From assembly GCA_051362555.1 (NCBI GenBank), contig CM120642.1, forward strand, positions 2,108,001 through 2,172,000: a stretch of DNA of 64,000 nucleotides, read 5' to 3'. Made by a program: the position numbers and the translations under genes. Source of the DNA: Lingula anatina (Eukaryota; Animalia; Brachiopoda). The first letter of the stretch is position 1. The number at the start of each line of letters is the position of its first letter. Under the pieces are notes generated by a model. That model worked only from the letters and a program-made list of their open reading frames with translations. It was not told where the DNA came from and did no database searches. Positions 18,301-64,000 of this stretch are shown in pieces.

Positions 18301-21300
18301 ATTAAAGTAATATTACAGTTATATGTATCGAATGATATAAAATATTTTATGTTAAAATATATCAAATAATCCTCCACCATAGGTACAAGTTACTCTGATA
18401 TCACAGATAAAATATTTAGGTTACTATAAGCAGTTTAGCAGTTATATTTCATTTCAAGGATAAAGTATTACATGTATCAGTGTGGATTCCTTTTTTATGC
18501 ATTATATATTAAACTATTTCTGATGATGAGAATAAAATATTAAAGATTGGGATCACTTTTCTAGAACTCCCAGCTTCTTTATATCATTTTGTTCAAAATC
18601 AATCAATCATTTTTTTTTCTCTTTAAATTTTCTGTATGAGTAATAAAACAGCATCCAAATAATCAGTGGCTTACTTACAAAAAAATTAAAAATGGGATTT
18701 CACTTGTGTTTTTTTTTTTTAGTTTACAACCCCAAAAAATTAAAGAATGTATACATATTCATCAGCCAAATAAAAATGTCTCAAATGAATTTACGGGAGT
18801 CCTAAAACATTCATATAATTAGACTGATAAATGTGGATTATTATTATAAGAAGCTTAATATGTTTGCAACTAATGGTTAAGATGGCAGCTTCCTCTCTAT
18901 CATGCAGTTCCTTTTACAGTTAATATTAAGAAGTCCTGGTATTTGCGTATCCATTTTCATATATTTTAGTAGTACTAATAGGCGACTAAACTGTTAATCT
19001 GATGCTACATACTTGCTGCAGCCTTAACTAACCTCATAATCTTTACTGCTAGCCACACTGCCCCGGGGTGACTTTGTCTGTGACCCTTTGGGTGACCTTG
19101 ACCCTTTTGATGACTTTGACCCCTTGGATGACATTGACCTTGGACTTGATGCCACACTTGAGGCATCATCATTCTCTGATTCTGATTTTTCTGAGCAGCC
19201 AATGTGGCCATGCTTTTCTGAAGCCTTTCTCAAGCCCTCGGACTGAAGAAGATACTTTCTGCCTTGAGAAATCTCGCCCTCCATGGCTAAGATGTCGCTC
19301 TCTTTCACTGGCCATCCGCACCTCTCCAGAGCTTGTAGCAGTGCCAGCTTGTTGTCCTCAAATGATATGGGTTCAGTGCTGCCAAATCTGGGTGAAGAGA
19401 GGAGTAGAGAGTGAACTCACTGGGTAGAGTATTATTATTTACTATGTATGTATCTTTTGCATCAGCATGTGTGAACTACTTAATAAGATTTTATCAATAT
19501 TTTCTTTGAAAAATGACAGAGGATTTTCATTCAACAAAATCCTGTCCAAAATAACCACAAGTTTACTACAAACTTACGCAATACCATACAAATCAAATCA
19601 GAGTGAAAGTTAAGAGACATTTCAAATACTGAAAATAATTATTGCCATAAACTTTCTGGGTGCTTTTACTGCCAATACAAACACTGCAAATATATTTTTG
19701 TTATCAGTATATCACATAAAATAACATAGTCAACTAATAATAATACTAGTAAACATTTATCATGCAAATGGTAGTTTAATATAAGGCATGAAATCAACTT
19801 ACTGTTCCTTTTCAGTGGCAGGCAACGCTTTCCAAACCATCGCATCAAGACGTCTGAAATAGAGTTTAATAAAGTGGTAAGAATTTCTAGACAAAACCTT
19901 GTAACTAAAAATTTTAACATAAGATTTTTTAAAAAGTTTGTATGTACAGAGCATCTTCATACACAAACTGTTCTTGCTCTTGAGCTTTTACTTACATCTC
20001 AGGGTGCAAAAATAATTTTTCTAATTTTTCAAAATCTAAACTAATATACTGTAACAATCTTCCTTTCATTTTAAAAATCAAATATTTTCAAAAATCAACA
20101 AATATTTAATGAATTTTTGGTCTTGAAAACAAACCAAATTTTATTTGAAAGAGTTTTCTTACTTTTTATATTTTTCAACAGCAGCAGACACTTTATTTTC
20201 ATATGCCTTGAGATCAATAGAGTCTGGGTTCACCAAGTGAATGTGTCTTCTGTTGGAAACATGAGCAAATGGCATGGACTGGAAGCAAGTAATAATATTA
20301 ATAATAATAAATTTAAGTTTAAGTATAAAATATGTATAAAATTCTGGTATTATCAACAACTAATCTCCAGAGAAAAATAATAAAAAGTTCAAATACACCA
20401 TTTCAGTGAAAAATGTTTGAAAATTGCTACAATTAAAAATTCCTTAGTAAAGCAAAGCCAGTCCATAATATCAGAAAATGTATTAGGCAAGAAAAAATAC
20501 AATGTGCAATTAAATACACTTACATCATCAAAAACTTTCGACAGTGCGTAGGCGTCTAGGACAGGGATATGTTTTGCGTTCTGCTCTATCATGGTGGGCG
20601 CCAGAGCATCAAGGATGGTCAGTTTCTTAGCCAGTAAACCATTGTGCTTCAGCCACATCTTAGCAGACATGTTGTTTGGGCTAGAAGTGGAAAGCAATAT
20701 TTGAAAGTTTGGAAATATGTAATCATATTCCTTAAGAGACTTTGTGTTATTTATTGCAACAGAAAAAAAATTATCAGACTCATAAATATCCATTTGGAAT
20801 GATTTGTTCTAAATATATGATGTATCATTTTTTGAAGATTTTTTAAAATACTTACTTTGATAACCTCTTTTTTCTTTTCTTTTCAATTACAACTTTTCCC
20901 TCAACCTCTGTAAAGATTTTAACAAATTATTTTCTGATGACAAAAAATTCAGTTGCTGACAATATTTTCCATGTATAAAACATAACAATGTTAAAACATA
21001 TTTTTCAAAATTAATCCCAGTCAAGCAATCAAACTAAATATTTAATTTCAATTTCTATGTCACAATGCATCTTTAAAAATAATACTTATTGAGCAGTTTT
21101 CATACTGTGAAATAAAAAACAATATATATGGTAATATTGGTTAATACTGCATGATCACTGACCTTCTTCCAGTCTCTTAGCCTGTTTATCAAACAGTTCT
21201 CTGGTTTCAGGGAGCAGCCACTCATTGGAGGAGAACCTGGCACTGCTACTCAGGGTACGGAGAAGACTAGTTCTGGTATGACCTGTGGAGAGAATAGGTC

Positions 21301-24300
21301 CAACTAGTAGGTATGTATTTATTACAAATGGCATAGCATGTACATACTGCAACTTAAATCTAAAGACTCCCTGTATGTAAGCATATTTCATATTAAGGAC
21401 AATTTAAGAACTGGTTAAATATAAAATCTTGTTTGGTAAATTTTAAGTAATTCAATAATGTCGATCATTCTGTACATGCATTTGAATATATTTCATTAAT
21501 ACATTTTATGAATAGGTCTTAATTTATTTGACAAATTTACAACAACTAAAAAAATTTAGGTTAAGTCTTATAACATAAAACATTTCTTTCTGTACAGTTC
21601 CCTTGAACTCATTATAATTTTATATAAAGAACCTATCATGTACCCTAACCCACCTGCAACCAAAGGTCTTCTGGCACTGGCAGGCCGCGGGCAGCTCACT
21701 GTACGATGTCTAGCTGACCGTCCTCCGGCCCCTGCTGACTGGGGTCTATACCCTGTGGCCGAGGACGGGCGTGGCGGTGGGGTGGGGGTACTGTGGCTGG
21801 TAGATCTATACCCTGTGGCACTCTTGGGTCTGTTAGATCCAGGTGACCTGTATAGCTCGGAGGGGTTGAGAGCCGGGACAGTGGACACGCGATCTGTGGA
21901 GGATAACTTGTGGTTTCTGCTGCAGGAGCGGACATTTTCTTTCTTCCAGGCTAAGGCGGCGCACTCATCTCTGAGATCTGCTATCTTTTGTAGGTTTTCT
22001 TTACCCAGCTCTAGTTCTTCTCTCAGGAGTCGAATGTCTTCACTCTGAATGGCAGGAAATAATGAAGGATAAATATAATTAACATCTCTTCCATTTACTC
22101 ATTGTCACTTTGGGTTCAATATATCAATAACCCCCCTCTCCATCCAACCAAAAAGGATAAATAAATAAATAAATTTAAACTTAAAAAGACAGAATATAGC
22201 AGTCTAGATCTTTTACTAATTTACTACAAACAGCATGGGATATTACAGGTCACTTCATACAAGTACAACTGTGCTCCAGAAATCTGATCAAACTTTAACC
22301 AATTTGAAATTTATATCACTAGACCATCAGATCACAAAGAGATCCCAGTGGACCCCAGAGGTACACCTACCTCCCATGGTGAGGGGTTATCTGGGTCCTG
22401 ACCGTGTTCAGAGTAGTAGTGGTAGCGCCCCCCAGTGTCCTTGGCCAGCTGACACAGGAACTGGTTGGCCTCCTTATCTGAGCAGTTGAACGAGATGGTG
22501 TGCAGCGGCACGGCGTGCTGGAGCTGGACCTGTGCCAGAATTGACCTTGGTGGCTGAGGAGGAAGGGAAAATATTCAAACTATTAATTAAATCAGCTGAT
22601 AAAAATAAGGCACTATTTTTGTCACAATCTGAATGGTAAAGTGGCAGGTGCCAGTTCACTAGTCTTCAGTTCACTAATTCAAACAGTGCTATTTAAGTCT
22701 GTCATTATCCAAAGTCTGATCCTATTATAATCATCATGTCTATATAAATAAATACCTGATCTGGCCTGCCATCAGTTAACAAGTACACAGCCTGTGTGGC
22801 ATGGTCTGCCAGAGCAAACTGTAGTGCAGCCAGTGTGTTAGTTGAGCCGACACATTCCAGGTTCTTGATCCATGTCCAGGCTGCCTGCAGGTTCTTCTCA
22901 TTCACCTCCACACACCTGTCCTTCCAGGGGCTGATCTTACTGTTAAAACTGACTAGATTGAACTTCTGTTTGTGTCTCAACTGCTCCTGTAAATTCATAA
23001 AAAAAGAGTTTGAGGTTTGAATTTTCAAAGGTTCAAATTTTTCTGAATCGATCACTTAAATAAAAGCCTACAGTTATGTTTCAACATATTAAGATTTTTT
23101 CTATTTAAAACTCTGCAAAAATATTTAAAAACACCATGTAAATCTTAGCCCAAAAATTAACAGCTATCCATTATAGATTAAATTCCTTGCTTTAAATATT
23201 TTTTTAGCTGTGGGTGAAGGGGGAGGTCAAGCATTTCTGCACACAAGAAGGATAAAAGAATTTGGAAAAAAAAAAAAGAAACAACATGGACATTTTTCAT
23301 TACTTATCCTACCTGCATCAGTACAAAGAGTTTATCCTTCACAAACTGTATGCTAGGAGCCATGGAACCAGAGGTGTCTATCAGGATGTAGATCTGGTCC
23401 TCAATCACTGTACCAAATAGTTCCCTACTTCCCTGCTGCAGCCAGTCAATCCTGGAATACATGCAAATCCAGGTCAGCAAATAGTTTTATAATGGATGCT
23501 GGGAGAATAGGGCACAACAACAGAACAACAACAAACGAAGCAAATAATTCTTGGCTGTAAGTTCAGATGTCAAAAGAAATGTTTGACTATCAGGACAACA
23601 ATGGTTTGTTGACATTGATATCAAGTCAAGAGCGGTTGTTGATACAGATGTTACGAATCCAAAGGCATGCAGAAACTGAAATAAAGAGGCAAGAACATAT
23701 CTTCTGCAAACCACCCAAGCTGGAAACAGATACAAAACAGAAAATGAAATCATAAAAAATCAAAGATTTATAAGAATGGAATATGAGGAATGCATTTTCC
23801 TGTATTAAAAAAGAAAATAAAATAAATCCTTTCTGCTAGATCTCTGGGTAAGAAAACATCAAAAGGCATCAAGTTTTAGCCACTGCACAGCCTCACCTGC
23901 CCCCTCCGCCACTGGAAAACACAGGCATTTCATCAAATACAAACATGTGTTGTCTGCTTTTATCATATCTACTCATACAGTTCATTAATTTTGATATTTA
24001 TCACATTTTAGACAGTTGGAAAAGAAAAACATCAGAATAAAATGAATGCATCAAAATTAATCCCTAAACAAATTAAAATGTAAATAACCAACTCTGTTTA
24101 TAAAACAAAACAGTTCAGGTGATATCTCAGCTATACCTACTTCACGGAATCATCACACTATTTTTAACACTTGATAATCATTCCCAAGAGCAACAAATAA
24201 ATAAAAAGATTACCTTTGCTGCAGACTGTCTAGCACCACGTTCACGCGGCGTTCGTAACTCCTGTGCACCTCAGGCGTCACCTGCACGTGAACTACTTTC

Positions 24301-27300
24301 CCGTTCTTCCACTTCACATGAGCAAATTTATCACAGTATCTTGCATTGATGAGCTTAGGCTGGACTCTCTGGTATAAGAAATGATAAAAATTATCATCCA
24401 GCATTTCTTTACAATATAAAAGAAAAAAGATCATACAATTTGTGTGATGATAATGTTAATATTAATAGTAAAATGAATTAGTTTTGGAATGTGCATTTAT
24501 GAAAAGCTATGTTTTACAAATTACACAAATTGTTCCTAAAATGGATAAGAAAAGCCCAAATGTGGTTTGACCAGTAAAACGGAATAATCAGAAAAAAAAA
24601 CAGAACTTACAGCATCTGTCTGAAAGTCATGATAATCTGGTTTCTGGTTCAGATCCACCACGCCATCACAGTGTTTAAATGCCACTCCCCCCAAAATGTC
24701 ATAGAACCCAAGCTTCTTAGCCTTCAGTCCATTCATTTCTAGCCATTCTTTAGAACTCATGTACTGCTCACTCTTCTCCTTGGGGGGAGGAGGAGGGTAG
24801 TCAACAGCTTTTCTTCCTGAAAAACAGCCGATACACTTTATATTATGAGGAAAAATACAATTTTGCTTTAGACACACTTTTATGTTTTATTTGCCAAATT
24901 ATGACGTTATGAAACTGATAAAAATAAATGATCTAATACATTTAAAAATGTATGTTTATTAAAGAAAATTATTGGAAACATTATTTATCAATTTTAGTAA
25001 TGTAGATGATCACACAAAGGTAGATTATCATATACTACACAGCAGTACAGTAACATATGTGAAAGAAAATAGCATAAAGCTGAAAGTAAAATAAAATACA
25101 ATCTGAAAATAGAAAGTTGAGTTACCCTTTAAGTTTAGAGTAAAGAGAAAAACTACAAGTCAAAAGATTAGTAGGTGCAAGGGAACGGAGCTGGAGGAGG
25201 CATATAAAAGAGCAGGAAACTTAAACTTTAAAGTGGCATTAACTTGTGGGATAAAAATATATAGTTGTGCTGAAAATATAAGGAGAACTTATAGATATGA
25301 ATAAAAGCATCTCATAGTCAGAGTAGAATAGTTACAGAGCTAATTGCAGATAAATTATCATTATTAATGCTAGGATCAGTTCAAGCAGTATTTCAAATAT
25401 CTTGAAGCAATAAAATTTCATTTTTTTTTCCAAGAAAAAAAAAAAGGGAAAATCAAGTGTTATGGGCAAGTGATGCTTCTGATTTTAAAATGTTTCTGTG
25501 AAAAAGGCAAGAAACTGTCAGAAAAAAAGCTGCATGTCATTGTTATAGTAAATTTAAAAAAATGATAAACTAAGAACAGGTCATGCAGTGAAGGTGAGGT
25601 CATTGCTAGAGATCACAACTAGAGGTCATCACTAGAGGTCACAACAAGAGGTCACCACTAGGGGGCAGTAAAGTCACCTCTTGTATCTGTCATGGAGCTC
25701 TGTCTGGTCATCAGTGGTTTCCTGGGGACATAGCCACCCCGGGAGGAGAGAGCAGTGTCACTTTTTGTCCTCTCTGTTTAATAAAAAATCACACAATGGG
25801 AAAAACGCTGCACTATATGTCACTGTTGAAAACTAGGTAAACTATGTGTTTTCTTGCACCTGATATCTTTATTACAGACTTCCACTTAGATGTTTAGTTT
25901 TCAATCACATGCATTTTAATTTGTTAAAAACTCATTACTACACAGCTACTATAAGCAATCCATCACCAAATCAATGCACAAAACATCACATCAAAATATC
26001 CCATTAAAAACAAAAGGTACTGTCCTTGTATAGAATAATTATGTAGGTGTTATATATTTGGTTTTGATTTTTTGTTATAACCAAAGAGTTAAAAAATTAG
26101 GTTATTCCAATCACCAAGATCTGATTATGCCAGCACAAAATCACGTCCACTTTAGTGAATTCATTCTAAACTAAACATACCAGTAAAACTCAAACAATGG
26201 TAAGAAAAATCATTAGTAGCTTATTCTAATTACCTATCATTTTCTGGTCAGGCATGTCTTCTATCAGTGCCTGGATCTGGCTGAGTGTGTTCCTAGCCTC
26301 CTCCAGCTCCTCAAAGACTTTGATGACATCCTCCCGGACCCCTGCCCCCTGGGGGACTCCCCCAAATGTCTTCCTCTTCAGGACAATATTGGCACGATTG
26401 GTGTTGGGGTCCACAGGTACGCCCTCATAGGCATCCATCTCCATGATAACTCCATAGGCATGGAACCTGGGTACACATGGAAAATATTCGTAGTAATAGG
26501 TTGATACAATTCAATTATTTGTCTTAAAATGTTGACTTTCTATTTTCGTAGTGATAAAATAACTGTCAGAAGATTATTTGTTCATTTATATGAAAACTTG
26601 CCATACGTCCTTCTTTTATAATGTCATTGCTTTTATGCATAAGGACATAAATAAATCAATTGATTTTCTTTAATTCATAAAAATACTTAATAATAAAATC
26701 CTCATTTAATAAATAGCATATATCATGATTAGTCATATTAAGTTTGATTATTCATGACTTGACTATTACTTACTTTCCTCCAGTGACTTCACAGAGTTGT
26801 TTGAGAAAGCCCACTGTTTCCACACTGGTAGCATTGTATGAGGCCACATGTAGAGGAAGAGGGCCACCATGGAGCTAAAATTAAATTTATTCTAATTTTG
26901 TATATCTTTACACATCAGAAATTACCAGCACAAAACAAAACCTTATACATATACACATATCCCAGATGTTTTATAGATATTCAATACAGATAAGAAACTT
27001 TAGATTTTACTTTTCACTAAGAAATTTCTTTATAAAGGCAGTGATAAACCTTTATATAATTTTACTCTGTTATTTTATTATACTTGGTAGCAGTCATAAT
27101 TTGCAATGTATCGTGCATAAATTTTCTAATAAAAATAATTTGAAGATGTAGTTGCTGAACTAAAAAAAACAAAGGAAAAGATAAATAAAAAAACTTAATG
27201 TGGAAAATGTGGATTGAAAAAAAAAGACAAGAAAAGCAAGGTAGGGTTAGAAACAGAAATATTACAAAAAGGTGATGTGTGGATCTATTTCAACTATGAT

Positions 27301-47970: not shown

Positions 47971-48157
47971 ACACGAGTAAATTTATTATTTGAGTTTTTT
48001 ATTATCTAATTAAAATCTTGTATGATGATACTTCAAAATTTCTACCTTATGGGGAGTTTGAAACATTATCCATTGTTTTCTAAATTTTAATAATAGAAAA
48101 GATATTGTGCATTTATGTACATACACTTTTACTGTCATTTTAAAAATCATTTAAATA

Positions 48158-48384
48158 TGGGTGCTTTCCCAGAGATTTAGATCGATCTAAAGATTAAGTT
48201 TTAGATTGACCTAACTCCTTGGGGGTTCACGCTAAATTGCAGTCAGCTGAGCGGGCACCATAGGTAATTACCCCCTTACAGCTTTTAGTAGGCGGAACAG
48301 ACGCTTAAGCCAGCCAAGCTGACAGTAATCTAGTGAGACTCCCCACAGGGATAGATCGATCTAAAAATCTATGGAAATGGGGTG
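48158..48384. mobile_element. Foldback MITE between convergent 3' ends
   Basis: Left TTTCCCAGAGATTTAGATCGATCTA and right TAGATCGATCTAAAAATCTATGGAAA are inverted. Inner arms CAGTCAGCT / AGCTGACAG also pair. Confidence 0.7.
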
Positions 48385-48973
48385 TATAAGTTCAAATTGG
48401 TTTTTGTTTAGACTGATTTAACAAATGTTTTAATTTCAGTTAAATTTTTCAAAGCAGTCACAATTCAAGAATTCACAAAAACAAAATATAAAACTAAAAT
48501 TTTATTTACGAATAAATGAAAATAAAAGTACAACTTGTTCAAAAAAATAATAAAATCCTTACTTTCATTCGAAAGTACATAAAGTTAAATAAATATAACA
48601 AAGTCCATCTAAACAGTTATAAAACAGTCTGGCAATTTTTTTTTTTTAGTTTTTGTTTTTGCCCTGAACCAATAAAACTAGCTCCATCTTGGCAGCCATT
48701 TCCTAGTTTGTCAAACACTAAATTTAAAACGTGAAATTGGATTATAAAAACATTTAAATCTAACATGAATGGTACATTTGTTAATCATTGTCAAAGTTAA
48801 ATTACAACTATCTCCTTAATTCAGAGAACAATTACACAATATACTTAAATATTATTTTTTTTAAAACTCTAAACTCTAAAACTGACAAATTTTACAAGCA
48901 TATTTGTCCTACAAGTTCACAAGAAAAAACTGCTCCATGCTGTTACACAGCCATTTCCGATTTTCTGAAATTG

Positions 48974-51900
48974 TTATTCATCAATGCATGAAAAGCAAAA
49001 GCTCTTGCTACAATTGCCCTTTCCCAGACAGAGAGAAATGTTCTGCATATCAGACTTTGGCCTGTAATCAATTCTCTTCATTTTTGGAGGACTTACCATT
49101 TGCCAGGGTTCATCATGCCAAAGTCGCTTTGGAGATCTGGCGTGTCCTTGCACACGATCTTCTGGGAATCTGAATTTTGATTTCTTGTCCAAATTCCTTC
49201 TGGTGATGCTTTCAGAATCACTAAATCCATAACGGTCAGTTTGAACCCTTCCACCACCTTTTGGCCTGGACTGGTCTTCACCAACTCGGTGTCTTGATCT
49301 TGAAACATTACCCTGCATACCAGTATCTGACTCCACTGGGTATCTGACACTACCAGGCTGTCTCTCTCTCTTCTTGACACGAGCCGTCTCATCTTCACTA
49401 TACAACAACACATCATTTCCATCATGGTGAGCTCCAAGACCTCTGAGGTTTTTGCTGTAAAAGTTGCTTGGCACTTGACTCCGTTTCTCTTGCTTAGGAT
49501 GACGTGGATCTTCAATGGTCTTCCTTTTACTTTCACCCCCAAAATTGGAATAATCTCCATCTTGTTCCAAGTTGTGTCTTGAGGACCCTCTTATACTCTT
49601 TAAAGTATTTGCAAAGGAGGTATCTTTTAAGGTTGACTCTTCACAGTCATATTTTGGCACACTTTGGGGTTTAATCCTATAAGAAACTTTTGAAAACAAT
49701 CCAGCTGGTTGTTTATTTTTTGTACTTGAGCCTGCAGTGGTTTCTTTTTCTTCAGCTTGAACTGAATGTTGCTTGTCCTTCAGCTCCTGCTGCTTCCCCT
49801 GATCATCTTGTATACTTCTCCCTGCCAGAAATCTCCCTCTTGAATCTATCCTCTGCCCATTGGTTTTAAATTTAGGCTTTCCATTACCTGATGTTCCCAT
49901 CTCCCTCTGCTGGTTTCTCTCTTTTACTGATGGTGCTCGGTGGATTTTCTCATTCCTTTGACCCTGTCCCATCTGTTCTTTACCAAACAATTGCTTTTTT
50001 GCAGCTTTTACTACCCCTTCTTGGTTAAGGCTTGCCTTTTCAAAATTCAAGTCATGTGAGTTGGATAGATCACGAGACTGATCAAGAGAATGTTTCACAA
50101 GAGTTCTGTCCATATCATCTTGGTCCTTCAAATCGTTGGTGCTCCAGGAGCATTCAACTATTTGCGCCTTCTCCTTCGATCCCATTGTGGCATCCAAGTC
50201 TAACAATTCCACACCATCAGAATCGTAGCTATTGTTACATTCGAGGTCGCTGTTCTCTGATTCTTCAAGGTCTGTTGAATATACCATACCTCCAAATCTG
50301 GAACTGGAATTGCTGATGGAAGATATGTCACTGGAGTCAATATGGAAAGAATCTTCATCTTCCTTGTTTGGGGTACTGGTGATGCTCTTGCGTCTGAACT
50401 TTGAAGTACCTATTTGCTTGTCAGGGGTGCCTGGATAAACAGGCTCACTACTGATTTGGGACTCGACCTTCTGATTTTTAGGTTTCCATGATTGGGGGAA
50501 TGTGTCAAAGGACAGACTCTTGGATGACTTCTGACTAGGGGGTGAAACTCTTGGTGACAGCTGCCCACTGTCGTCTTGTTCTTGTTTCTTTGACTGAAAA
50601 GGTGATTGATATTTCTTGCTCTTAGTTTTGTATATTTTGTGTACATGGCTGTCCCTGTCCTTCTCCTCCCTAACGTGACTTGATATTGAATCAGCAATCA
50701 CAGGCTGGACCCTCCTGTCATCCATCTCATCCAAAGTTGGCCGAGTATAACCAGCTGAGTCAGCTGTCACAGCAATCAATCTTCTCACTTCCTTTTTATC
50801 CTTCTTTGTGTTGGCATGCCCATTAGCCAATGCTGAAGAATACTCAAAACCAGCACCCTGAGTCTCATAAGATATTTCTTCCATGTTCACCGAAACATCC
50901 ATCCCACTGTCCACAGATTCACATCCCAGATTTCCGTCTTGAAATCTGTGACCTAATTTCTTTGGTGAATGGTGTAGAGGTGTGTTTGGATCCCTTGAAT
51001 AACCAGATGATAGTGGTGTGTTCAGCTGAAGCCGCTGTATGTACTCTGAGGGAGACTGTGCATCCGGAGCAAACCGGCCCGACGTTGGATTAATTTTACT
51101 CGACCTAGGAGTTTCATACCTCATGGTTGGAGTGACAGACCTTGCATGTGGAGTGAATGGTTTGGAGCTTGGAGTTGTTGACCTAGAGCTTGGTGTTGTT
51201 GACCTTGAAGTTGGAGTGAGTGACCTTGCCTTTGGACTGTGTGATCTTGAACTTGGAGAGCATGACCCTGGCATCAGAGTTGTTGACCTTGAAGTTGGTG
51301 TGAGTGACCTTGCCCCTGGACTGTGTGACCTTGAACTTGGAGTAAATGACCTTGGCACTAATGTATTTGATCTAGAGCCTGGAGTTGATGACCTTGAAGT
51401 TGGAGTAAGTGACCTTGCCCTTGGAGTATTTAACCTTGAACTTGGAGTACACGGTCCTGATATCAGAGTGTCTGGTCTTGAGCTTGGAGTTCTTGTCTTT
51501 TGCCTTGGTCTTGAAGTTGGAGTGCGGAACACGGGGCCTGACACTGTACATACGTTTGAATCAAACATGTCTCTGCTGCCATGAAGACTGACACCACTGC
51601 GACTACTGTTGCTGTTGTCACTTTGTCTCATCCATTTATCACTGCCATTGGTCAAACTTGGACTTGCTGGAACTGCCATTATTCTTGTTGACTCAGCCTG
51701 AGGATTCCACACAGGTGGCACAGCTTGATGTCTGTTGTTACAGTTTACTTTCTCAGTATCTGCTTGGGAAAGCCTTGTGGATTCAGCTTTAGGATTGCCA
51801 ATAGCACCCCTTATCCCAGCAGAATGATTCTTCAAAATATCTGCAGGCTTCACCCAGGGAGGTTTGAAGCCGGCTCCTTCAGAGATCCTGGTAGACTCCA

Positions 51901-54900
51901 TGATGGGACAGAACTGGTTGGAAGGAGGTTGAAATAGAGACCTTTCACTGATGCATTGATCTTCAAATTGCCTGTCAACATTTGCGAACAAGTTTGTATG
52001 CAATGTCATGTCAGAATGTTGATCTGATGCCGTGCTTTCTAAAACCAGTCTCTTCTTAGCGCTGAATTGGGCTCCTCTTGCTCCTGAAACACCACCTATG
52101 AATTTGGCAGGGGCACTCTGCCTGAGCTGATCCAGTTGGTTTTCGATTTGCCTTGATGTCGGTGTATTTGAAGCACTGCTGAACTTCAGACACTCGGTCT
52201 GCGTTGGCTGGGGATAGGTTGGGGTTACTTTGACAATGGCAGTTTCTTGGGTAAACTTGGGTGTAGTGAAGGGATTTGGACTACCTAAAAGAAAAGCAAA
52301 AATAGAGCCATGTATTTCATTTTTGTAAGTGTTAACAAATGATTGACAAAAAAAAGACAAACAAAAGCACTCCATTTCCAAGGTTTTTGAATGATTAAAT
52401 TTTATCTACTCAAAAGGAATTATCTATGGAATGACTTCAATGTATCATTTTTGCACTTTTTTAAAAAAAATATTTATCATGCTTTAATTTTTATCACATG
52501 AATGGGATTTTTTTTTCTATATTCTTGACTTCAAACAGAAACGATGACCATATTTAAATATAACATGTGGACAACAATTGAAACCAATAAACACATTAAT
52601 TATCATCTTTTAAATTTAGTGTTCATCAGTAAAACAAATTGCATGCATTCAACTTCATGTCATCAGACAGGCGCCACTAGGCCTACCTTGCCCAGAAGTA
52701 TGTTGTTCCAAGGGGTCCATGACATAAGGCAATGGTGAGTGCATCAAGAAAGCCATCCCTTCAATGGTCAGCCGTGGTGACCTGTGAACTATCCCTACTG
52801 GAACCTTACCACTAGCAGCACCCAGTACCCGTGGACTGCAAGACACTGAGGTCTTGGCTCCATTGTGTCTGTTGTTTGCCATGTGGTGATTGTCTTTTGG
52901 AGAGGTTAATGGGAAAATTACCACAGCTGATGATTGCCTAAGAGACCTGTTGTCTTTATCATCTTGTTGGTATTGAAACTCCTCATGCTGCTGATACTGA
53001 AAATCTTCAGGCTGCTGATACTGAAACTCCCCATGCTGCTGATATTGAAACTCTTCATGCTGTTGATATTGAAACTCACCCACGGGAACACGCGAAGGAA
53101 GTTTGTTTTGCACTACAGTAAAAGTTGCATTTGTTCCAACACCAAATGGCTGCATTTGTGGTGTATTGACAGTGGTCATGCTGATATCCATGGCTTCTTC
53201 CTTCCCATGTTTGTATCTGCACACATCCTTCTCCCTCATACCCAAATCATACTTTTCTTCTGGGACACACTGCCAGACGGCTTCACGAGATTTCCGTTTA
53301 TCTGTGGTGCTTTGTTTTGAATTCTCTCCTATAAACACCTGCCTTTTACTTATCAAGGACTCTGTGTGAACTACATGTGGAGGCTGCTCACCTGAGACTG
53401 ATTCGCCAGCATTCAAAGTCTGAAAGTTTTGAGGGCTCACCGCCATTGGAGAATTGGAGGTTGTAATTTGAGGCGAGTTCATTGATACGGCGTCATACTC
53501 GTTCATATGTATGGATGTCAAAGCAGTTTCTTCTGAAAAGTAGGTCTCTTTCATTTTAGCAGTTCTATGGTTGTCCTTCCTTGGTGACTTAATCTCATTT
53601 CTACAATTTTCAAGCTCTGAGCTCTTTTTTTCTGAAGAGTCAAAGTTTTCAGATCTGGTGGAAGCTAAAAAGGGGGCTACCTCAACCATATTCTTTTTAT
53701 AATAGTTTGATTTGGGTTTTCTGTCAAGCTTTGAGCTAGATGATGTCTTCTCTGGTGTAAACATGGAAATGAACAAGGGGTTAGTTGGACATGAATTTAC
53801 AGGCTGTGGTGTTATCCTCCTTTTGGCAGTTAAGATTTGGCGTTTCTCTAAAATTTTCACCTGAAAACCAATGATTGTAATGTCAAAGCAATAAAACTAA
53901 CACAACATAAGGAACATTAAGAATGAACTTTATATGCTGGTTCATATATTATAACAGACAAATGGATGTATTTTTAATTCATCAAGAAAAAGGCAATTAT
54001 ACATAAATATACTCTATATAGAAATATACGGTAAAACTGCAGCTTATTTTTTCCTGCATGACCTTGAAACCATGATACTCAGATTAACATAGATATCACT
54101 GATAACAACAAACAGTTTAATCAACAAGCAGAAACCGTCAACCCAAAATGACTTGTTTCTTAAATTACCTTCTCTTGTTTCTCTGTTTCTTGTGCATCCA
54201 CTCTTTTTCTGCCAGAGCCTTTGGAATCTGATTTAGATGATCTATGTTCTGACACACCATCAACCACATCACCCTCAACTTCCCAGTTGTCCTGTTCAAC
54301 GTCACTATCACTATCACATGAAATAAATATCTCTTCATCACTTGGCTCAGGTTCCTCTGCAACATCTTCGTTCTTAAGCTTTGAGTTTGAGGAAGTCTTC
54401 TTCAGTGTAAAAGTGTTATTATGAACAGTGGTCCCTGGAGACGAGTTTACAGCCTGTAGTGCTGCTCTTTTCTTAGCATTTAAACATTTCACCTACAAAA
54501 CAATAATGGCTGTCTCAAATGTATAATCTTAAACAGTAAACACAAATGCTGGGTCACAAAGTATACTTGCTATGAATATGAAACAGAATCTGTCTTCTTT
54601 AATTCATGAAAGGAATGGCACTCAAGACAAAAGTTATATACTGTATTAGTAAAATTAGTTCTACCAAGCCAGCCTTGAATCCAATTGTCTTATAAAAAGA
54701 ATGGTTCTATGAATTATCAGAAATATCAACCCAAAATGACCCGTTTTTAAATTTACCTTATCCTGTTTCTCTTGCACTTCTGCTCTTTTTCTACCAGAAC
54801 CTTTGGAATCCGATTTAGATGATTTCTGGTCTGCCACACAATCAATACCATCATCCTCACTTTCCCACTGGTCTTGTTCATCCTCGCTGTCACTGTCACC

Positions 54901-57900
54901 AATACTCTCCCCGTCACTGGGCTCAGGTTCTCCTATGATACTTTCGTTCTCCAGGACTTTCGAAATAAAATCTTCAGCAATCTCTGGAATTTTCAAACAT
55001 GATTAAAAAATTAATATAATTTAAAAGCAAAAGAAGTTTCTACAGGACAACTTCAGGTCTGTGGGGGGAGGGGGTCTTTATTTTTTAAAAGTGGAACTTT
55101 TTATTGTGAACCATACATCTTCACATAAAATAGATCAAATGATGATTAAAAGCAGACCTTTCACGTACCAAAGGGTGGTTTGTTGAACCTCCTCCCAGAC
55201 ATGCTAAAAACTTTTCATTTGGACCGGCAGTAATGAAAAATTTGGCAGACCGAATGGATTTTTGTCAGACCGAAAATCACTCTATTCGTTTGAGACAAAT
55301 AGTACCAATACAATTAGGGTAGCTTACTTTGTTTCTGAATGTGATAGTTTTGAAAAGGAAGGAAAAAACGCTTTGGGTTTTATATAATTTTGAAGTATGT
55401 CAAAAGATGACTGTAAATTCAAAATTGCGGTTCTTAAAACTCTTGTCCTTTGGACCGACCAAGTCCAATTTTCTACCGGTCATGACCAATCGGACCCACA
55501 GTTTCAGCGTGTCTCTCCTCCACTCAAACTTCTAAGAATTTGGGATTAAAAAAATCAAATTTCTCCCATGATGGTAAAAAATTGCTTTAAACTGTTAGGG
55601 ATTTTATAAACAATTGAAAAAAAACTCTGTTCAAAGTTGTCAAAGCAGGTTTTAAGTTAAATGTTAGCAATCATGATGAGGCTAATTTGAATTAAATACC
55701 AGATTTAACACATGTTACAGGCCATAATCTGAAACATGTAGGATGTTTCTTTAAACACTAGTGTGACTGTGGATGGTATTTAGGAAGGAATTTTCTCGCA
55801 CCTTTAGCAAAATACTTTTTCAACCATAATGAATATAAAACAACGGCTCCCACATTTCAGGTTACTGTAGTAATCTCAGATCATGGCCTATAAGGACATA
55901 TCAAGCACTTCTTTGTGATATATACCTTCCTCTGCTGTTCCCCGTACTGTGCTCTCATCATGCAGTGATCTCATGAGAGACTCCTCTTGATCCAAGGAAT
56001 CAAAGACTGAGCTACTAAACTTGCTACTGCTCTGAAATTTAGAACAGTTTCTCTTCTGCTTTACTTTATAGGGCTTAAAACCAGGATTCAACTATATATA
56101 AACATTTCTTGATTGGGTTTTTAATCAGCACAATTACAAAAAGAAATATCATGAAAAGAAAATACGAGCTATTTCAATGTGATGCAACACTAATACCAAT
56201 TATCAAGGTACCAAAATATTCCCTATTGCTAGACTGACTTTTACTTATGTGATCACCCTTAAAAGTTCCTCATGATTACTTGTTCAGCCATAATTGTCCA
56301 TAAACAAGTAAGCACACACTGTGCACATATATATTGCATGCAGGACATTTCATTCCTACCAGTGTATGAAATTAGACCTAATGACAGACCGCAACACAGA
56401 ATTAATGATACTAGTATAAATAAAGAAATATTCAAATTACCTTGCTGTTTTCGCCAGAAGCAAATCCAGATTCATTTGGATCAAATGCCAATGGCAGCTT
56501 TGCTACAAAAAGAAACTCTGGTAAATTTATATTGAAAGCCTATGTGTTTATACCAATGGACACTTTATCACTCACACTCTATCACAATCATATAACATCA
56601 GTACACGGCTCATTAAGAAATCTGATCAGACATACTGCACTTAAATATTAATGTATAATTAAAGGTATCTCCTCCATTTGGTAGCAAATAACTCTGACAT
56701 AAAAAGTAGAGAAGACAATTTAAATACTAGTAAGAGCATTGATCATTTGTTTATATAAATATGACAATAAATATTTTACCTCTGCCCTTCACTGAAGCAA
56801 GCTGTGTTTGTCCAAAAGCTTGGGCTTTTTTAATTTTTTTCAGTCGTCCTGTAAATGTTGCTAAATTATGTTATTATCGTAATATAGGATAGACAGGCAT
56901 CTGTTTAATGTTTAAATTTAGATTTCTACCTTCATGGTATCAAGTCTTTCCTGATTATCAAAACATGAAAACAACATAATTATTCTGCTTTTGCTTGTTA
57001 AAAAGCAGTATTCTTTTGTTTTTTCTTCAATTTTCCACCCATTTTATATTACAAAATTCATGCTGACCTTTAACAGTGTGTGTGTGTGTGTGTGTGCGTG
57101 TGTGTGTAATTCAACATGGAAATATGAAAGCTTACTTACCAACTTCATTTTCAATTACAAAACTTTCAAGATCAATGATATCATCTCTATGAAAAGGCTT
57201 ATTATACTGAAAAAAAGAACTGTATGATAATGAATTATGCAACAAGAAATCTTAAGTAGAAAACAACCAAGTTCATGGTTAAGATAGAATAATTATAGTA
57301 ATACATCCCCATCCTGACATCACTAGTAAATATATAAACAAGGCAGCAAAGCTGTCAAATGTACAGACAAAAAACAGAAAAAAAAGATGCAAAAGAGGTC
57401 ATTTTGTCAATTTTGATGCAACAATAAATAATGCTTATAATAGCAGTCAGTCAACACTGATTTTTCATTATGCACAACAGGTAACATGGTCAATAACAGG
57501 AGCAGATCCAGAAATATTTTTGACAGTATTCTAAAGTATCTTTATTGATCCATCTTCCATTTTGATGGTCTTCCAAAAGAAAAAAATAGATACCCATCAA
57601 TATAAAAAATCTAACTGTCTTCCAGGAGACCCAGAAGATGGGTCTCAATCCACCCCTTCAATTAGATTATAGTTTCATGACCATGAGAGTTAAAATTCAC
57701 ATGATGAAAGTCCCAATATAAGAAAAATGATGACAGTGCATAAAATAATATTACCAGTGTTTAAAGACATGAATACCAATACAACTGCTTACGTGGAAAT
57801 ACAGAAATTGTGCAGAGCCTCAGGTGGATGGGAAAGTCACATCTTAAAAATGCCAGTGTTGGAGAAGAAATTAAAAAGAAAACAACAAAAATATAATCTA

Positions 57901-60900
57901 ATGAAGCTGCTATTCAGTGCTTCCTTATTATGGACACTGTTATCTAGCAGAGAGCTTAACCTTTGGGAGTTTACAGGGAAATATCAACAAGTGTGATTTA
58001 TGAAATCTCATTTAATGGCCACTTAATCAGGCAAATGAGTTTATAGCACTAAACTTAGCCTAGTGAATACCCAAGGGGAATTTACAGACTGACCACACAA
58101 ATTTGTCCCATAAGACACAGCTTAAGAAAAGCACAAAACAATAATGCACAAAAATAGGAGACTGCCAATTCTGATGCAATAGTACATTATGTTTAACTGC
58201 ACAGTCAATATCAAATTTTAATTATGCAGAACAGGTAACAACGACGAAAGTAAAAGCATAAGGCTTCAGGTCCATCAAAGTTCAAATTTACAATTAGAAA
58301 GAGCCAGAATGAGAAAAATGAAAATTTAACACAAAATTGCATAAATTCAATAATAAACTAGAGGATCAGAGAGGCGATACCGCCTCCGAATATTGTACCA
58401 CCAGCTGGAGCAAGCGCATTCGTATAGACCCCCACATATACAAAATAAGGAACACAGCCACCAGTCTTGTGCTTGACAAGCTGTAAAAATGCAATCAACA
58501 AGAATTTTCAAAATATGCAAAAAATATATATATTACTAAAAATGGTACAATCAAAGTTAAGTTCATCGTAAGGTAGGTCAAAGGTCAATTCCAAGGTCAC
58601 AGTAAATTGCCAGTATATGACTTCCTATTCAACTTCAATAGTAACTATGGGCCTATCTCTGCCAGGTTTGGAGTTAAAAGAGAAAGAAATTAGCAGAGTT
58701 CAGTTCATGATAATAAGTAGGTCAAAGGTCAATTTCAAGGTCACACTTAGATTGCCAGTATAAGACTTCCTATTCACGTTCAATAGTAACTATGGACCTA
58801 TCTCTGCCAGTTTTGGAGATAAAGGGGAAGCAAAATATGCAAAGTTCAGTTCATGGTGAAAAGTAGGTCAAAGGTCAATTTTTAGGTCACTTTTAGATTG
58901 CCAGTATATGTCTTCCTATTCAACTTCAATAGAGACTATGGACCTATCTCTGCCAGTTTTGGAGATAAAAGGGAATCAAATTTTGCAAAGTTCAGTTCAT
59001 GGTGAAAAGTAGGTCAAAGGTCAATTTTAAGGTCACATGTAGATTGCCAGTATATGACTTCCTATTCAACTTCAATAGAGACTATGGACCTATCTCTGCC
59101 AGTTTTGGAGATAAAAGGGAAGCAAAATTTGCAAAGTTCAGTTCATGGTGAAAAGTAGGTCAAAGGTCAATTTTAAGGTCACATTTAGATTGCCAGTATA
59201 TGTCTTCCTATTCAACTTCAATAGTAACTATGGACCTATCTCTGCCAGTTTTGGAGATATAAGGGACTAAATGTTATAATTTTGGAGTTACCATAATGTG
59301 CCATAAATTTCCTACAGAAAAAATTAATTAAAATAAAGAAAAGGTCATTTTGGTCAAAATTCTTGAAATGGGAGGTGCTCTGAAGTTCCAGATGTTCAAA
59401 TTTGATGAAATAATGTCATTTTTGACCACAAGTTGTCTGCTTTGCCAAGCCTTATGTTTTATTTTTCCGGAGTTCAAAATTTATTATCCATTACCGTACT
59501 GCACATTTTGCTTTCACCACCAATATGTACTTTTTGATACAGCGTAACTCGAAAACCGTATGGAATACAAAAAAACGGAGACCACCTCCAGTGTTCTGCT
59601 TTACATGCTCTACAAAATGCAAAAAAGAATGGGTGTCTGGCATTAACGGTTCCCGATTTAGAGACAGTTTTCAGTTTCGATATCTTATGGCCGCTAATTC
59701 CGTGAAAATGCACCGATTGACCCCAAATTCACGGAGATGAAAGATGACCTGAAGGGTAACACTTTCCATTAATATTATTAGTTAAGTCTGTGTGGTGTCT
59801 GAATAAGACCGCAAATAATTTTTTTTTCGGCAAAAATTTTGTTTTTTTGAAAATTTTGGCCCGTTTGACCTTGAAATAAAGGTCAAAGGTCAAATCCAAG
59901 GGCATATTTGAAATCTACACATATGACTTTTGGAAAGCTGTCTGTAGAAATTTTTCCCATAATTCCTTCCGTAGGGGAGATAATTAGCATTTAATTTTGC
60001 CATTTTTGGACAAGGGTGCATTGCAATGAGTGCCACACCTAGACCCCAATACCGACAAAGCCCAAATTTTACGTGGAACGAGTTGAGATTATAGGTGACC
60101 TAAATCCAAGAGATGGGTATGGAGGCCATTACCGTCTAGGAGGAGAAGCGGTAACGGTGACTTGGCGGCGGAGCCGCAGGAGCCGCAGGAGCCGGCGGAG
60201 CCGGCGGAGCCGCAGGAGCCGGCGGAACATACGGGTCGGGACTAAAACCATGTGTACCGCCAGCGCCTACGCTGGTGGTACAATGATAACCCAATTGAGC
60301 TGGCTTTCTAATTTGAACTGCATGCCAATCCTAAAAATCATACTTGTAAGTTAAACACAATAATAGGTAACACAGTTTTCTTTCCATAATGTTTGCAGAA
60401 GCAGTACAAAAATATTTTTGTCAATTTTGATGTAACATTACATAATAATTTATAGAATAATGATCACCAATTTTTTATTATTGACTATGAATAGCAAGGA
60501 CATGTAGAAAATTTGATTACCATTCGGCTTCATGTCCATGGGAGTTCTGAGTCCCACAATGAATATGCCAAAAAGATAATAATGAATATTTCACTAGACT
60601 GCTTTTCCAACTTTTTTTGAAAGATTGAGTCGTAAGTAACATGATTTTCCCATAATGGTCATCATGGCAGCAACACCAAAAATTATGTTTTCTTCTATTT
60701 TGATGCAACATTACATAATGTTTAACAGCATAATGACCATCAATTTTTAATAATAAAATATTAGTATCATGGATATTCAGAAAATGTGACTAGCAAAGGT
60801 CTTCAAGCCCGTGGAGGTTCTAAGTCACACCTTGAAAATGACAATAAATGAATAATTAAATTTTCACAAAAAACTGTTTTATTGCCAGAAAAATTTACCA

Positions 60901-63900
60901 AACAGACTGCATTGCCTACTGAAGCTATATTTTAGTCCCATGTTTCTTTCCTGTAAGTTTGAGAACAGTGAGTGATATGATTTTCCTTAAATGATCATAT
61001 GTCCAACTAAGAAAATTGATGAGATGGGAAAAGTATCAATAGAACAGTGTTAATTGTGTTTTCTTCTATTTTGATGCAACATTACATAATGCTTAACAGC
61101 ATAATGACCATCAATTTTTAATAATAAAATATACATCATGGATTTTCAGAAAATGTGACTAGTATGGGTCTTCAAGCCCGTGGAGGTTCTAAGTTGCACC
61201 TTGAAATTGCCAATATGTGAAAAATTAAATTTTCACAAAAAAACTGTTTAATTGCCAGAAAATTTTACCAAACAGACTGCATTGCCTACTGAAGCTGTAT
61301 GTTAGACCCATGTTTCTTTCCTGTAAGTTTGAGAACAGTAAGTGACATGATTTTCCTTAAATGGTCATCATGGGAGCAGTGCCCAAAATAGGGGTTTCTT
61401 CAAATTTTGATGCAATATTACATAATGTTTAACAGCATAATGACCATCAATTTTTAATTATAAGATATTAGTATCACGGATATTCAGAAAATGTGACTAG
61501 CAAAGGTCTTCAGGCCCATGGAACTTCAAAGTCACATCTTGAAAATGCCAAAATGTAAACAAGACAGCACTGTTCTGAAATGGGTTTAGTTCCATTTTTA
61601 ACACTTTTTTAACATAAAACAAAATAAACATTTTACTGCCATTTTTATATGGCCAACTAAAAAAATTGATGAGATGGGAAAAGTATCAATAGAACAGTGT
61701 TAAATGTCCAATTTCCTCCATTCTGAGATTCTGAACATAGTGGAGGATTGAATCTGACAAACTGCAATGATATGAGTTTATTTCCATTTTTGACACTTTA
61801 TTACACATTACATGATAACAAGTTTACCATGTTTTTTACATAATCAACTAACAATGTTGTAAAGATGCAGGAAATATCAAACAAACACTTTTACGCATCT
61901 TATTAGTTCAATAATGAGACTGTTAACATGCCTAATAATTGAATCTGAGGAAATGTGAAAAAACAGTATAACTTCTAAAATAATGGCCCGCTTATGCTGA
62001 TTTTTGAACTCAACCTGCGTTTTAGTAAGATTGACAACTTCTGTGAGTATAATGACAATTGGCCAATCCGTTTTTCTTATATTGTGTTATCAGTGTTGCA
62101 TTTATATTGAAAAAAGTGAAAAAAACAGCATAAATTCCCTAAAAATGGCCCAATCATGCTGATTTTTGAACTTGACCTGCGTATTATGAATATTCATCAG
62201 TTCTGTAAGTTTCAAGCCAAAAGGTAAAAGGGTTTTCCACTTATCGTGTTATCGGTGCTGTATATATGCTGAAAAAAGTGAAAAAAACAGCATAACTTCC
62301 CTACAAGTGACCCGATCATGCTGATTTTCGAACTTGACCTGCGTATTATGAATATTCATCAGTTCTGTAAGTTTCAAGCCAAAAGGTGAAATGGTTTTCC
62401 ACTTATCGTGTTATCGGTGCTGCATATATGATGAAAAAAGTGAAAAAACAGCATAACTTCCCAAAAAATGGCCCGATCATGCTGATTTTCGAACTTGACC
62501 TGCGTATTATGAATATTCATCAGTATTGTAAGTTTCAAACCAAAAGGTAAAATGGTTTTCCACTCATCGTGTTATCGGTGCTGCATATATGCTGAAAAAA
62601 GTGAAAAAACAGCATAACTTCCCTACAAGTGACCCGATCATGCTGATTTTCGAACTTGACCTGCATATTATAAATATTCATCAATTCTGTAAGTTTCAAG
62701 CTGAAATAAAAAACAGTTTTCCACTTATCGTGTTATCGGTAAAAGTGCACGGCGACGACGGCAACGACGGCGACGGCGACGACAGACGCAGATGATGGCT
62801 ATATGTACAGACACATCTGTGTCTGTACATAAAAACAGCATAAATTCCCTAATAGTGACCCGATCATGCTGATTTTCGAACTCGACCTGCGTATTATGAA
62901 TATTCATCAGTTCTGTAAGTTTCAAGTCAAAAGGTAAAATGGTTTTCCACTTATCGTGTTATCGGTGCTGCATATATGCTGAAAAAAGTGAAAAAACAGC
63001 ATAAATTCCCTAATAGTGACCCGATCATGCTGATTTTCGAACTTGACCTGCGTATTATGAATATTCATCAGTTCTGCAAGTTTCAAGTCAAAAGGTAAAA
63101 TGGTTTTCCACTTATCGTGTTATCGGTAAAAGTGCACGGCGACGGCGACGACAGACGCAGATGATGGCTATATGTACAGACACATCTGTGTCTGTACATA
63201 AAAAGGGGAGACATGAAAATAATTCATATGTAACATTTGCCAAATGCGCAGTTGTGCAAATAGTTTCAAACTGAAAAATCATCAAAAATATACCTTTTAA
63301 GTCATCAAGATTCATATCTCTCAATTTTGGTTTGAACAACTGAACTTCAAATAATTTTGATCTTCAATCAGAAAATAAGTTTAAATAAAGTTTCATTTTA
63401 TTTGGCAGTTATCTGCAAAATACAGAAGTGAGATGTTCCCATTTAGGCTGTGTACGTATTTCTGCAAGGACACATAATGCCAGGTCAGAAAATTTTCTTT
63501 CCTGCAACAGTCCTCAATTAAAAGTTGTCTTCTACACCTTTTGCCTTTTCTTAAATGCTATCAGTATTTATAATTAACATAATAATTAACATATCACAGT
63601 TTAAAACATTGTTAAAATCATCAACTTTTTAAGTTTTAACATTTTATTATTCCAAAAATGTCTAATGAATTTTAAATAAAATAACACTACAACACACAGA
63701 ACTTATGAAGAAATGCATATACTTGTTTTCATGTATCAGAAATATCTTAAAATAGCACAAATATATCCGAGTGAGTTTTTTCTCAAGGTTATTTTCGTCG
63801 ATGAGAGAGACTCAGAGAGAGAGGCCGAAGAGAGACCAGATAGAGAAAGATCAGATGGTACGGGTGCTTGAAGAAATGAGCTAAGTTAGCAGATCTGACT

Positions 63901-64000
63901 CACCTTGTCTATAATTGCTTCAAGATTAGTCCTGTACCGTCGAGCCGATATGATAGTTCCATGAGCAATATACCTGGGATCCCGTTTACTGACTTCAAAC
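48974..64000 (-). CDS. HJURP: Putative CENP-A chaperone, Scm3/HJURP family (5'-partial, >1830 aa)
   Basis: Phase-consistent exons: >64000-63904, 57206-57140, 56848-56780, 56517-56441, 56091-55926, 54983-54757, 54492-54169, 53860-52687, 52284-48974. Spliced N-terminus ...IISARRYRTNLEAIIDK|YNKPFHRDDIIDLESFVIENEV|GRLKKIKKAQAFG matches the Scm3 pattern S..RF...+..II.KY...F..D.++D+.....+....G.L. The remainder is S/T/P/K/R-rich low-complexity sequence ending in CLGKGNCSKSFCFSC. The start codon lies outside the window. Confidence 0.75.
51092..51523 (-). repeat. Coding 21-bp repeat: ~19 heptads, consensus TPSSRS(T/L/H)
   Basis: TPSSRLN TPRARSL TPTSRSS TPGSRSN TLVPRSF TPSSRSH SPGARSL TPTSRST ... in ORF 48974-52381. 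Confidence 0.9.
52964..53080 (-). repeat. Coding 24-bp repeat x5 (xEFQYQQH)
   Basis: GEFQYQQH EEFQYQQH GEFQYQQP EDFQYQQH EEFQYQQD in ORF 52655-53860. Confidence 0.9.
55196..55515. mobile_element. MITE, hAT-like, 6-bp TSD
   Basis: Imperfect TIR CAGACATGCTAAAA / TTTCAGCGTGTCTC, flanked by TCCTCC on both sides (55190-55195, 55516-55521). Confidence 0.65.
57076..57107. repeat. (TG)n microsatellite
   Basis: GT dinucleotide run with one GC interruption. Confidence 0.9.
57497..57658. mobile_element. Degenerate inverted copy of the 28548-28709 MITE
   Basis: CAGGAGCAGATCCAGAAATATTTTTGACAG...ATCTTTATTGATCCATCTTCCATTTT...GTCTTCCAGGAGACCCAG aligns by eye along the reverse complement of 28548-28709. 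Confidence 0.8.
58357..60285 (-). mobile_element. Helentron-associated non-autonomous element (HINE/DINE-like) with internal 146-bp satellite
   Basis: 14-bp subTIRs ATTGTACCACCAGC (58392-58405) / GCTGGTGGTACAAT (60271-60284). An adjacent partial inverted copy at 60253-60264 forms a hairpin. 9-bp microsatellite (CGGAGCCGG/CAGGAGCCG) at ~60165-60225. 3' hairpin GAGGCG-ATAC-CGCCTC (58371-58386) followed by CTAG on the - strand. Internal tandem array. Confidence 0.85.
58555..59268. repeat. Tandem array, ~146-bp unit x5
   Basis: AGGTCAAAGGTCAATT starts at 58575, 58719, 58865, 59011 and 59157 (periods 144, 146, 146, 146). Confidence 0.95.
60410..61555. repeat. Degenerate tandem repeats, ~270-370-bp period
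   Basis: TTTTGATGCAACATTACATAATGTTTAACAGCATAATGACCATCAATTTT recurs near 60425, 60698, 61068 and 61405. Weaker relatives occur near 57410 and 58168. Confidence 0.85.
61557..63203 (-). mobile_element. Second HINE-like element with ~161-bp satellite and duplicated terminus
   Basis: CATGCTGATTTT units at ~61993, 62155, 62317, 62478 and 62639, then 62865 and 63026. Each block ends in a (CGA/CGG)n microsatellite plus a 13-bp hairpin TATGTACAGACAC-ATCT-GTGTCTGTACATA (62802-62831, 63171-63200). The left boundary is approximate. Confidence 0.75.

Follow-up and report, generated by a model that had tools for sequence, protein, structure and literature searches.

The HJURP/Scm3 proteins set the sites of centromeres, and that most invertebrates seemed to lack them was an unanswered question until 2026 (Hollis et al., Sci Adv 2026, PMC13322267). 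In that study the scm3 domain is defined by a helix of about 25 residues with periodic hydrophobics, followed by an acidic/hydrophobic beta region; fast evolution is reported for the family, the DXGXL motif is described as relaxed in Metazoa, and according to Table S1 the domain is N-terminal in the other orthologues too. Candidates used downstream had to give a predicted scm3-like complex (methods), and the preference for CENP-A/H4, the centromere localisation and the need in segregation were shown in zebrafish and stated for C. elegans. Table S1 includes a candidate from the brachiopod Lingula anatina, XP_013387541.1 (LOC106156701), of 1823 residues, with scm3 at 22–59 and HHpred E-values of 7.3e-5 (domain) and 0.81 (entire protein); this entry stands in the supplements and not in the main text. 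The stretch of DNA analysed here (the window) comprises 64,000 nucleotides of L. anatina (assembly GCA_051362555.1, contig CM120642.1, positions 2,108,001 to 2,172,000 of the forward strand), and carries on its minus strand a nine-exon gene that very probably encodes the brachiopod HJURP/Scm3 orthologue, a protein of 1811–1823 residues whose scm3 domain is N-terminal and which would bind CENP-A/H4 and deposit it at centromeres.

The identification of this gene as an HJURP candidate is therefore correct but already published in PMC13322267. The novelty implied by a preliminary description of the window, made from the letters alone, does not hold, since the stretch had been printed as the Lingula HJURP candidate; it is one of the examples of that study, and the present finding is a correct blind rediscovery. 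The connection runs through P0004, a database protein that is probably XP_013387541.1, judging by its equal length (1823 residues) and by the 47 scm3 residues printed in Data S1, which match P0004 25–71, encoded by exons A, B and C of the window, letter for letter in a comparison by eye. The window model has 1811 residues and is identical to P0004 at 1751 of 1803 aligned positions (97.1%), so that it represents another allele, another assembly or a very close relative. As the preliminary description stated, the protein is much longer than human HJURP (1823 versus 748 residues), yet this is not unusual, as Table S1 gives 1756 residues for Priapulus and 1372 for Patiria.

Gene structure

The exons of the gene, in the order of transcription, are the following.

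63904..64000, minus strand: exon A, with its 5' end outside the window; P0004 residues 4/5–36; donor GTGAGT, phase 0 (K|Y); putative scm3 helix to the K of KY
57140..57206, minus strand: exon B, 67 nt; AG/GTAAGT, phase 1 after; residues 37–58/59, with the Y of KY and the acidic/hydrophobic strand region
56780..56848, minus strand: exon C, 69 nt; AG/GTAAAA, phase 1 after; residues 59–81, with the end of ExGxL (DXGXL-like) and a conserved FG
56441..56502, minus strand: exon D, 62 nt; polar linker
55926..56031, minus strand: exon E, 106 nt; Ser/acidic linker
54757..54983, minus strand: exon F, 227 nt; acidic tract with a basic patch after it; duplicates part of exon G
54169..54492, minus strand: exon G, 324 nt; the second of the two acidic/basic repeats
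52687..53860, minus strand: exon H, 1174 nt; of low complexity, containing a 24-bp x4.3 coding repeat
48974..52284, minus strand: last exon, 3311 nt, ending with the stop; 21-bp x15 coding repeat rich in Ser/Thr-Pro, and polar tail

Exons A, B and C had been singled out in the preliminary description as three canonical minus-strand exons that join in phase and continue into the large open reading frames at 54–49 kb, and splice ends, phases and translations bear this out. The join of the three, read directly in the window, is bounded by GT and AG and in phase; AG acceptors precede all six exons after C, GT donors follow the five internal ones, and the nine exons form a frame of 1811 codons whose only stop is the terminal one (48976–48974). 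P0004, an independent record, has the same joins as the window model and was the sole protein found with the last exon when 7989 candidates were scored. Its first residues are MAGR, and from there it agrees exactly with exons A, B and C, which leaves only four codons outside the window. The 52 substitutions that separate the two over 1803 residues are unevenly placed, with none in residues 5–137 and eight in the last 1099. The domain had also been called hidden, which is true of the open reading frame track, where the short exons were missed, but not of the database gene model, which has them.

Several parts of the coding region are repetitive. Exons F and G, together with flanking intron, form an internal duplication (188 of 249 aligned nucleotides identical) that yields the two acidic-then-basic repeats. 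A 21-bp unit is repeated 15 times at 51127–51448, giving 7-residue units rich in S/T-P, and a 24-bp unit 4.3 times at 52974–53077, giving Gln-rich 8-residue units. Because the gap columns between the window and P0004 fall in exon H and the last exon, the copy number of these two coding repeats likely varies.

The scm3 domain and its relatives

When P0004 was compared with Pfam, Scm3 (PF10384) was its sole family match (residues 22–65, E 7.1e-5, 22.9 bits). In a search of the PDB with the whole protein, the human HJURP chain 3R45_C was the sole match at E<=10 (E 1.5), and with residues 1–81 the same chain was the best of 28 (E 0.016). Five non-self matches came from an unfiltered phmmer search against 1.84 billion representatives. 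Three of them are uncharacterised proteins from Physella acuta (P0006), Gigantopelta aegis (P0007) and Owenia fusiformis (P0008), which are matched at the N-terminus and reach 43.2, 36.1 and 33.3 bits against Pfam Scm3, all over the curated cut-off of 24.3. The other two, P0005 and P0009, are unrelated repeat proteins and were left out of the alignment.

A profile of the four remaining sequences placed three solved Scm3/HJURP structures at ranks 1–3 of 9 in the PDB, i.e., 3R45 (E 1e-5), 2L5A (1e-3) and 2YFV (0.062), and also found P0010 and P0011, two metagenome proteins of 701 residues with an N-terminal Scm3 and two Myb domains. As a control, a second profile was built from the three relatives only, with P0004 excluded. 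It gave P0004 1–81 a score of 72.3 bits, against 7.4 for the best of 2000 shuffles (1902 of them scored) and 8.9 for the best downstream window; among 2247 six-frame segments of the window it ranked exon B first (E 1.7e-6), exon A second (7.8e-5) and exon C third (1.5).

The residues that characterise the domain can be located in P0004. The KY dipeptide is K36-Y37, at the end of the predicted helix and aligned with the human KY; the hydrophobic pattern runs through Y26, L30, I33, I34 and Y37, then I46, I47, L49, F52, V53 and I54; and the DXGXL position reads E57-V-G-R-L61, where G and L are kept and E stands for D. An AlphaFold2 model made from the four sequences has a helix at 12–37 and strands at 52–54 and 61–63, with a predicted local distance difference test score (pLDDT) of 63–76 at residues 21–60. 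Thus the Scm3/HJURP identity given in the preliminary description is upheld by Pfam, by the PDB ranking, by the relatives and by a modelled helix that ends at KY and is followed by short strands.

Compared with the described proteins, human HJURP (3R45_C; PF10384) aligns without gaps to P0004 21–59, including the helix, KY and N-x-P-F; in contrast, Pfam detected in P0004 no HJURP domain of the vertebrate type, neither middle nor C-terminal. Budding-yeast Scm3 (2L5A, 2YFV) aligns at KY, at the D-x-(V/I)-D-L strand and at the DXGXL-type motif, the last with E-V-G-R-L of P0004; the S. cerevisiae protein differs in having 223 residues and its domain at 92–141 (PMC13322267). The Physella, Gigantopelta and Owenia proteins have long polar tails and, within the first 80 residues, an identity of 32–44% with 13 invariant columns, and the first two also begin with MAG like P0004; beyond the domain no common sequence was seen, none having been looked for. 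The Myb domains of P0010 and P0011 have no counterpart in P0004.

By analogy with the human, yeast, zebrafish and nematode orthologues as portrayed in PMC13322267, the scm3 helix would lie antiparallel to CENP-A's alpha-2 helix, KY would contact a conserved glutamate of that helix, and the loop 1 (L1)/CENP-A targeting domain (CATD) region would be the partner of the strand, so that CENP-A/H4 would be selected over H3/H4. The long polar tail, on the same analogy, may be disordered and carry centromere-targeting contacts with the Mis18 complex and/or CENP-C. We further infer that the tail could be timed by cell-cycle kinases acting on its many S/T-P sites.

Another aspect of the domain is the intron that separates K from Y. 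The preliminary description proposed that the human HJURP gene has a phase-0 intron at this place and a 67-nt exon after it; for the intron there is support from mouse Hjurp, through a guide sequence read by hand. In the passage of Filipescu et al. that deals with it, the guide is described as crossing the boundary of exon 1; it reads K-R-L-I-A-K and then GT, in alignment with the residues that precede the human KY, and the reverse complement of a second mouse sequence in that work, also read by hand, gives P-F-E-D-D-P, the residues after KY. From these two readings, K and Y are likely separated by a phase-0 intron in mouse Hjurp, as they are in the brachiopod gene. In the coelacanth, a 64-base stretch of scm3 lies in a contig gap (PMC13322267), which would agree with a small exon of its own there but is no proof of one. 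The main text of PMC13322267 does not contain the words intron or exon, and beyond the mouse guide passage no literature comparing HJURP intron positions was found; the shared position may thus have gone unremarked. If shared across animals, it would be evidence of orthology independent of a fast-changing protein sequence. The intron in KY is also a warning that six-frame searches of unannotated genomes will meet the domain only as pieces of 22–36 residues.

Transcripts and rival explanations

Four of nine RNA runs labelled with the same species (X1, X2, X4 and X7) were aligned to positions 48000–64000. In X1 and X2 the exon-rich bins at 49–56.5 kb are covered on the minus strand at a depth of about 11–80, and in X4 and X7 exon depth is near 0–1.5; the bin 54942–55475, which contains a repeat, shows lower and two-stranded depth in X1 and X2. 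At least four of the eight introns are seen as CT..AC joints, each with 41–90 reads in X1 and in X2: 56031/56441 between exons D and E (65 and 81 reads), 54983/55926 between E and F (75 and 90), 53860/54169 between G and H (41 and 45) and 52284/52687 between H and the last exon (43 and 69). The joints 57140>56848, 56780>56502 and 54757>54492 are not among the 15 joints listed, which are largely repeat-derived (180 others exist). In the bin 63486–64000, of whose 515 bases exon A makes up 97, minus-strand depth is 3.0 in X1, 2.1 in X2 and 0–0.1 in X4 and X7; this follows the pattern of the gene, unlike the repeats, and gives indirect support to transcription of exon A. An alternative donor at 49096 was ruled out, as reads cross it and carry another base there.

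Many fixed sites distinguish the reads from the window, most reads being 90–99% alike, which suggests strong population divergence or a cryptic or closely related species. Among 40 differences listed out of 1269, 35 lie in the coding sequence of exon H and the last exon, where 24 change the residue and 11 are silent, and the other five are non-coding; the share of residue-changing differences is in line with the fast evolution of the family reported in PMC13322267.

Several results weigh against the identification as a CENP-A chaperone. The Pfam score of P0004 is 1.4 bits under the cut-off, and single exons gave no match to Pfam or the PDB. The repeat proteins P0005 and P0009 obtained E-values equal to or better than those of the relatives, so that single-sequence scores at such a level are no proof. 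The AlphaFold2 model is weak overall (mean pLDDT 61.5, predicted template modelling score (pTM) 0.24). The joint 63904>57206 across the 6.7-kb first intron is likewise not among the 15 listed (with 180 others), and the portions of PMC13322267 covered report no bench work on any brachiopod protein. Other searches were uninformative or without a match: for an overall fold likeness to 3R45 or 2YFV, the monomer model, which has low confidence and represents a domain that takes its fold on the partner, gave nothing at E<=0.001 with Foldseek and a best Z of 2.7 with none >=5 with VIA; a word-index search with P0004 1–90 among shorter proteins gave 64 candidates with none at E<=10; the ESM Atlas gave no usable match for residues 1–85; and of 223 metagenome-contig matches to the alignment pattern none was confirmed, the pattern spanning K|Y so that intron-bearing copies could not match.

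One rival explanation is that the gene encodes a paralogue with the scm3 fold that does not load CENP-A in mitosis, e.g., one restricted to germline or embryo, while another gene performs the housekeeping function. The very uneven expression (an exon depth of about 13–80 in X1 and X2 versus about 0–1.5 in X4 and X7) and the unusually long tail with internal duplications would fit it. Nevertheless, a gene tied to division would probably also be low in non-dividing tissue, most deuterostome genomes have a single strong match (PMC13322267), and the core motifs are all intact; the absence of substitutions in residues 5–137, against 52 of 1803 overall, points the same way and is weak alone, as the last 1099 residues carry only eight. 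We therefore regard such a paralogue as very unlikely. That the likeness to scm3 arose by chance, with a basic helix and an acidic stretch opening a disordered protein of no relation, is hardly credible: the Pfam score below threshold and the weak single-sequence PDB E-values speak for it, and it is already largely refuted by the Pfam scores of the relatives, the transitive profile matches to three solved Scm3/HJURP chains in the PDB and the shuffle control with an independent profile (72.3 bits versus 7.4), to which are added the N-terminal place of the domain, as in other orthologues (Table S1), and the intron position that appears to be shared with mouse.

Protein tail, first intron and surroundings

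Residues 72–1823 of P0004 are 66% disorder-promoting and 21% hydrophobic, and the protein has 43 S/T-P sites, seven of them of the S/T-P-x-K/R type; 16 SP/TP sites fall in residues 976–1115, the region of the 21-bp repeat. The last 1100 residues have no relative besides P0004 among the 7989 candidates. At the very end lies one conspicuous feature.

48986..49030, minus strand: four-cysteine cluster C-x5-C-x4-C-x2-C; P0004 1806–1820, protein C-terminus

This pattern occurred in 1 of 5000 shuffles, a figure to be read knowing that the pattern was chosen after being seen. The cluster gave no Pfam match and no meaningful PDB match, residues 1770–1823 gave no usable ESM Atlas match, and the pattern is absent from the five relatives P0006, P0007, P0008 (a partial record), P0010 and P0011. 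A search for six short motifs in Data S1–S3 of PMC13322267 brought up no like cluster, a weak negative as these files are mostly domain extracts, and the word zinc does not occur in the main text of that paper. A match of the C-terminal peptide to a phage capsid was rejected, its per-stretch E being 10.

The cluster is a possible zinc site. The cysteine-rich domain of fungal Scm3 binds zinc. Folco et al. in 2024 reportedly found this domain to be needed for centromere targeting. It could be proposed that the brachiopod HJURP is unusually ancestral, combining the KY intron shared with mouse and a C-terminal zinc module homologous to the cysteine-rich domain of fungal Scm3; we consider this unlikely. 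If it were true, the cysteine-rich targeting module would predate the animal–fungal split and would have been lost in most animals. For the question of how HJURPs of invertebrates get to centromeres, the cluster offers an inexpensive starting point.

The first intron is large, and about half of it consists of repeats.

57207..63903, minus strand: intron 1, 6697 nt
58552–59266: 146-bp x4.9 tandem array, in intron 1
60166–60226: 9-bp GC-rich array, in intron 1
61951–62740: 161-bp x4.9 tandem array, in intron 1
62831–63127: 161-bp x1.8 tandem array, in intron 1

Further dispersed repeats are also present, the 146-bp and 161-bp arrays themselves sitting within dispersed repeats, and 3384 bases of the intron have another copy inside the window. 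Each of the four RNA runs covers the intron heavily, at a depth of up to about 1700 and with numerous loose ends, as repeats shared with many other transcripts would produce. A functional role for the intron was considered and rejected, its content being tandem and dispersed repeats that lack long terminal inverted repeats and have only internal arms of 40 nt; it would rather be a passive repeat dump.

Just downstream of the gene, at 48165–48366, a short repeat is covered by reads of either strand, with a joint at 48200/48366 on the opposite strand, and is possibly a small inverted-repeat element. Other genes are present elsewhere in the window. Positions 3555–3866 on the plus strand correspond to an exon of a gene for a CAF1-family ribonuclease (PF04857, E 2.4e-6), and 22705–23055 on the minus strand to an exon matching VWA_3 (E 1e-10). 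Also on the minus strand, 11523–11828 and 15363–15704 gave DUF4537/Tudor matches below the cut-off, and the region 11523–24886 of this strand likely contains one or two multi-exon genes.

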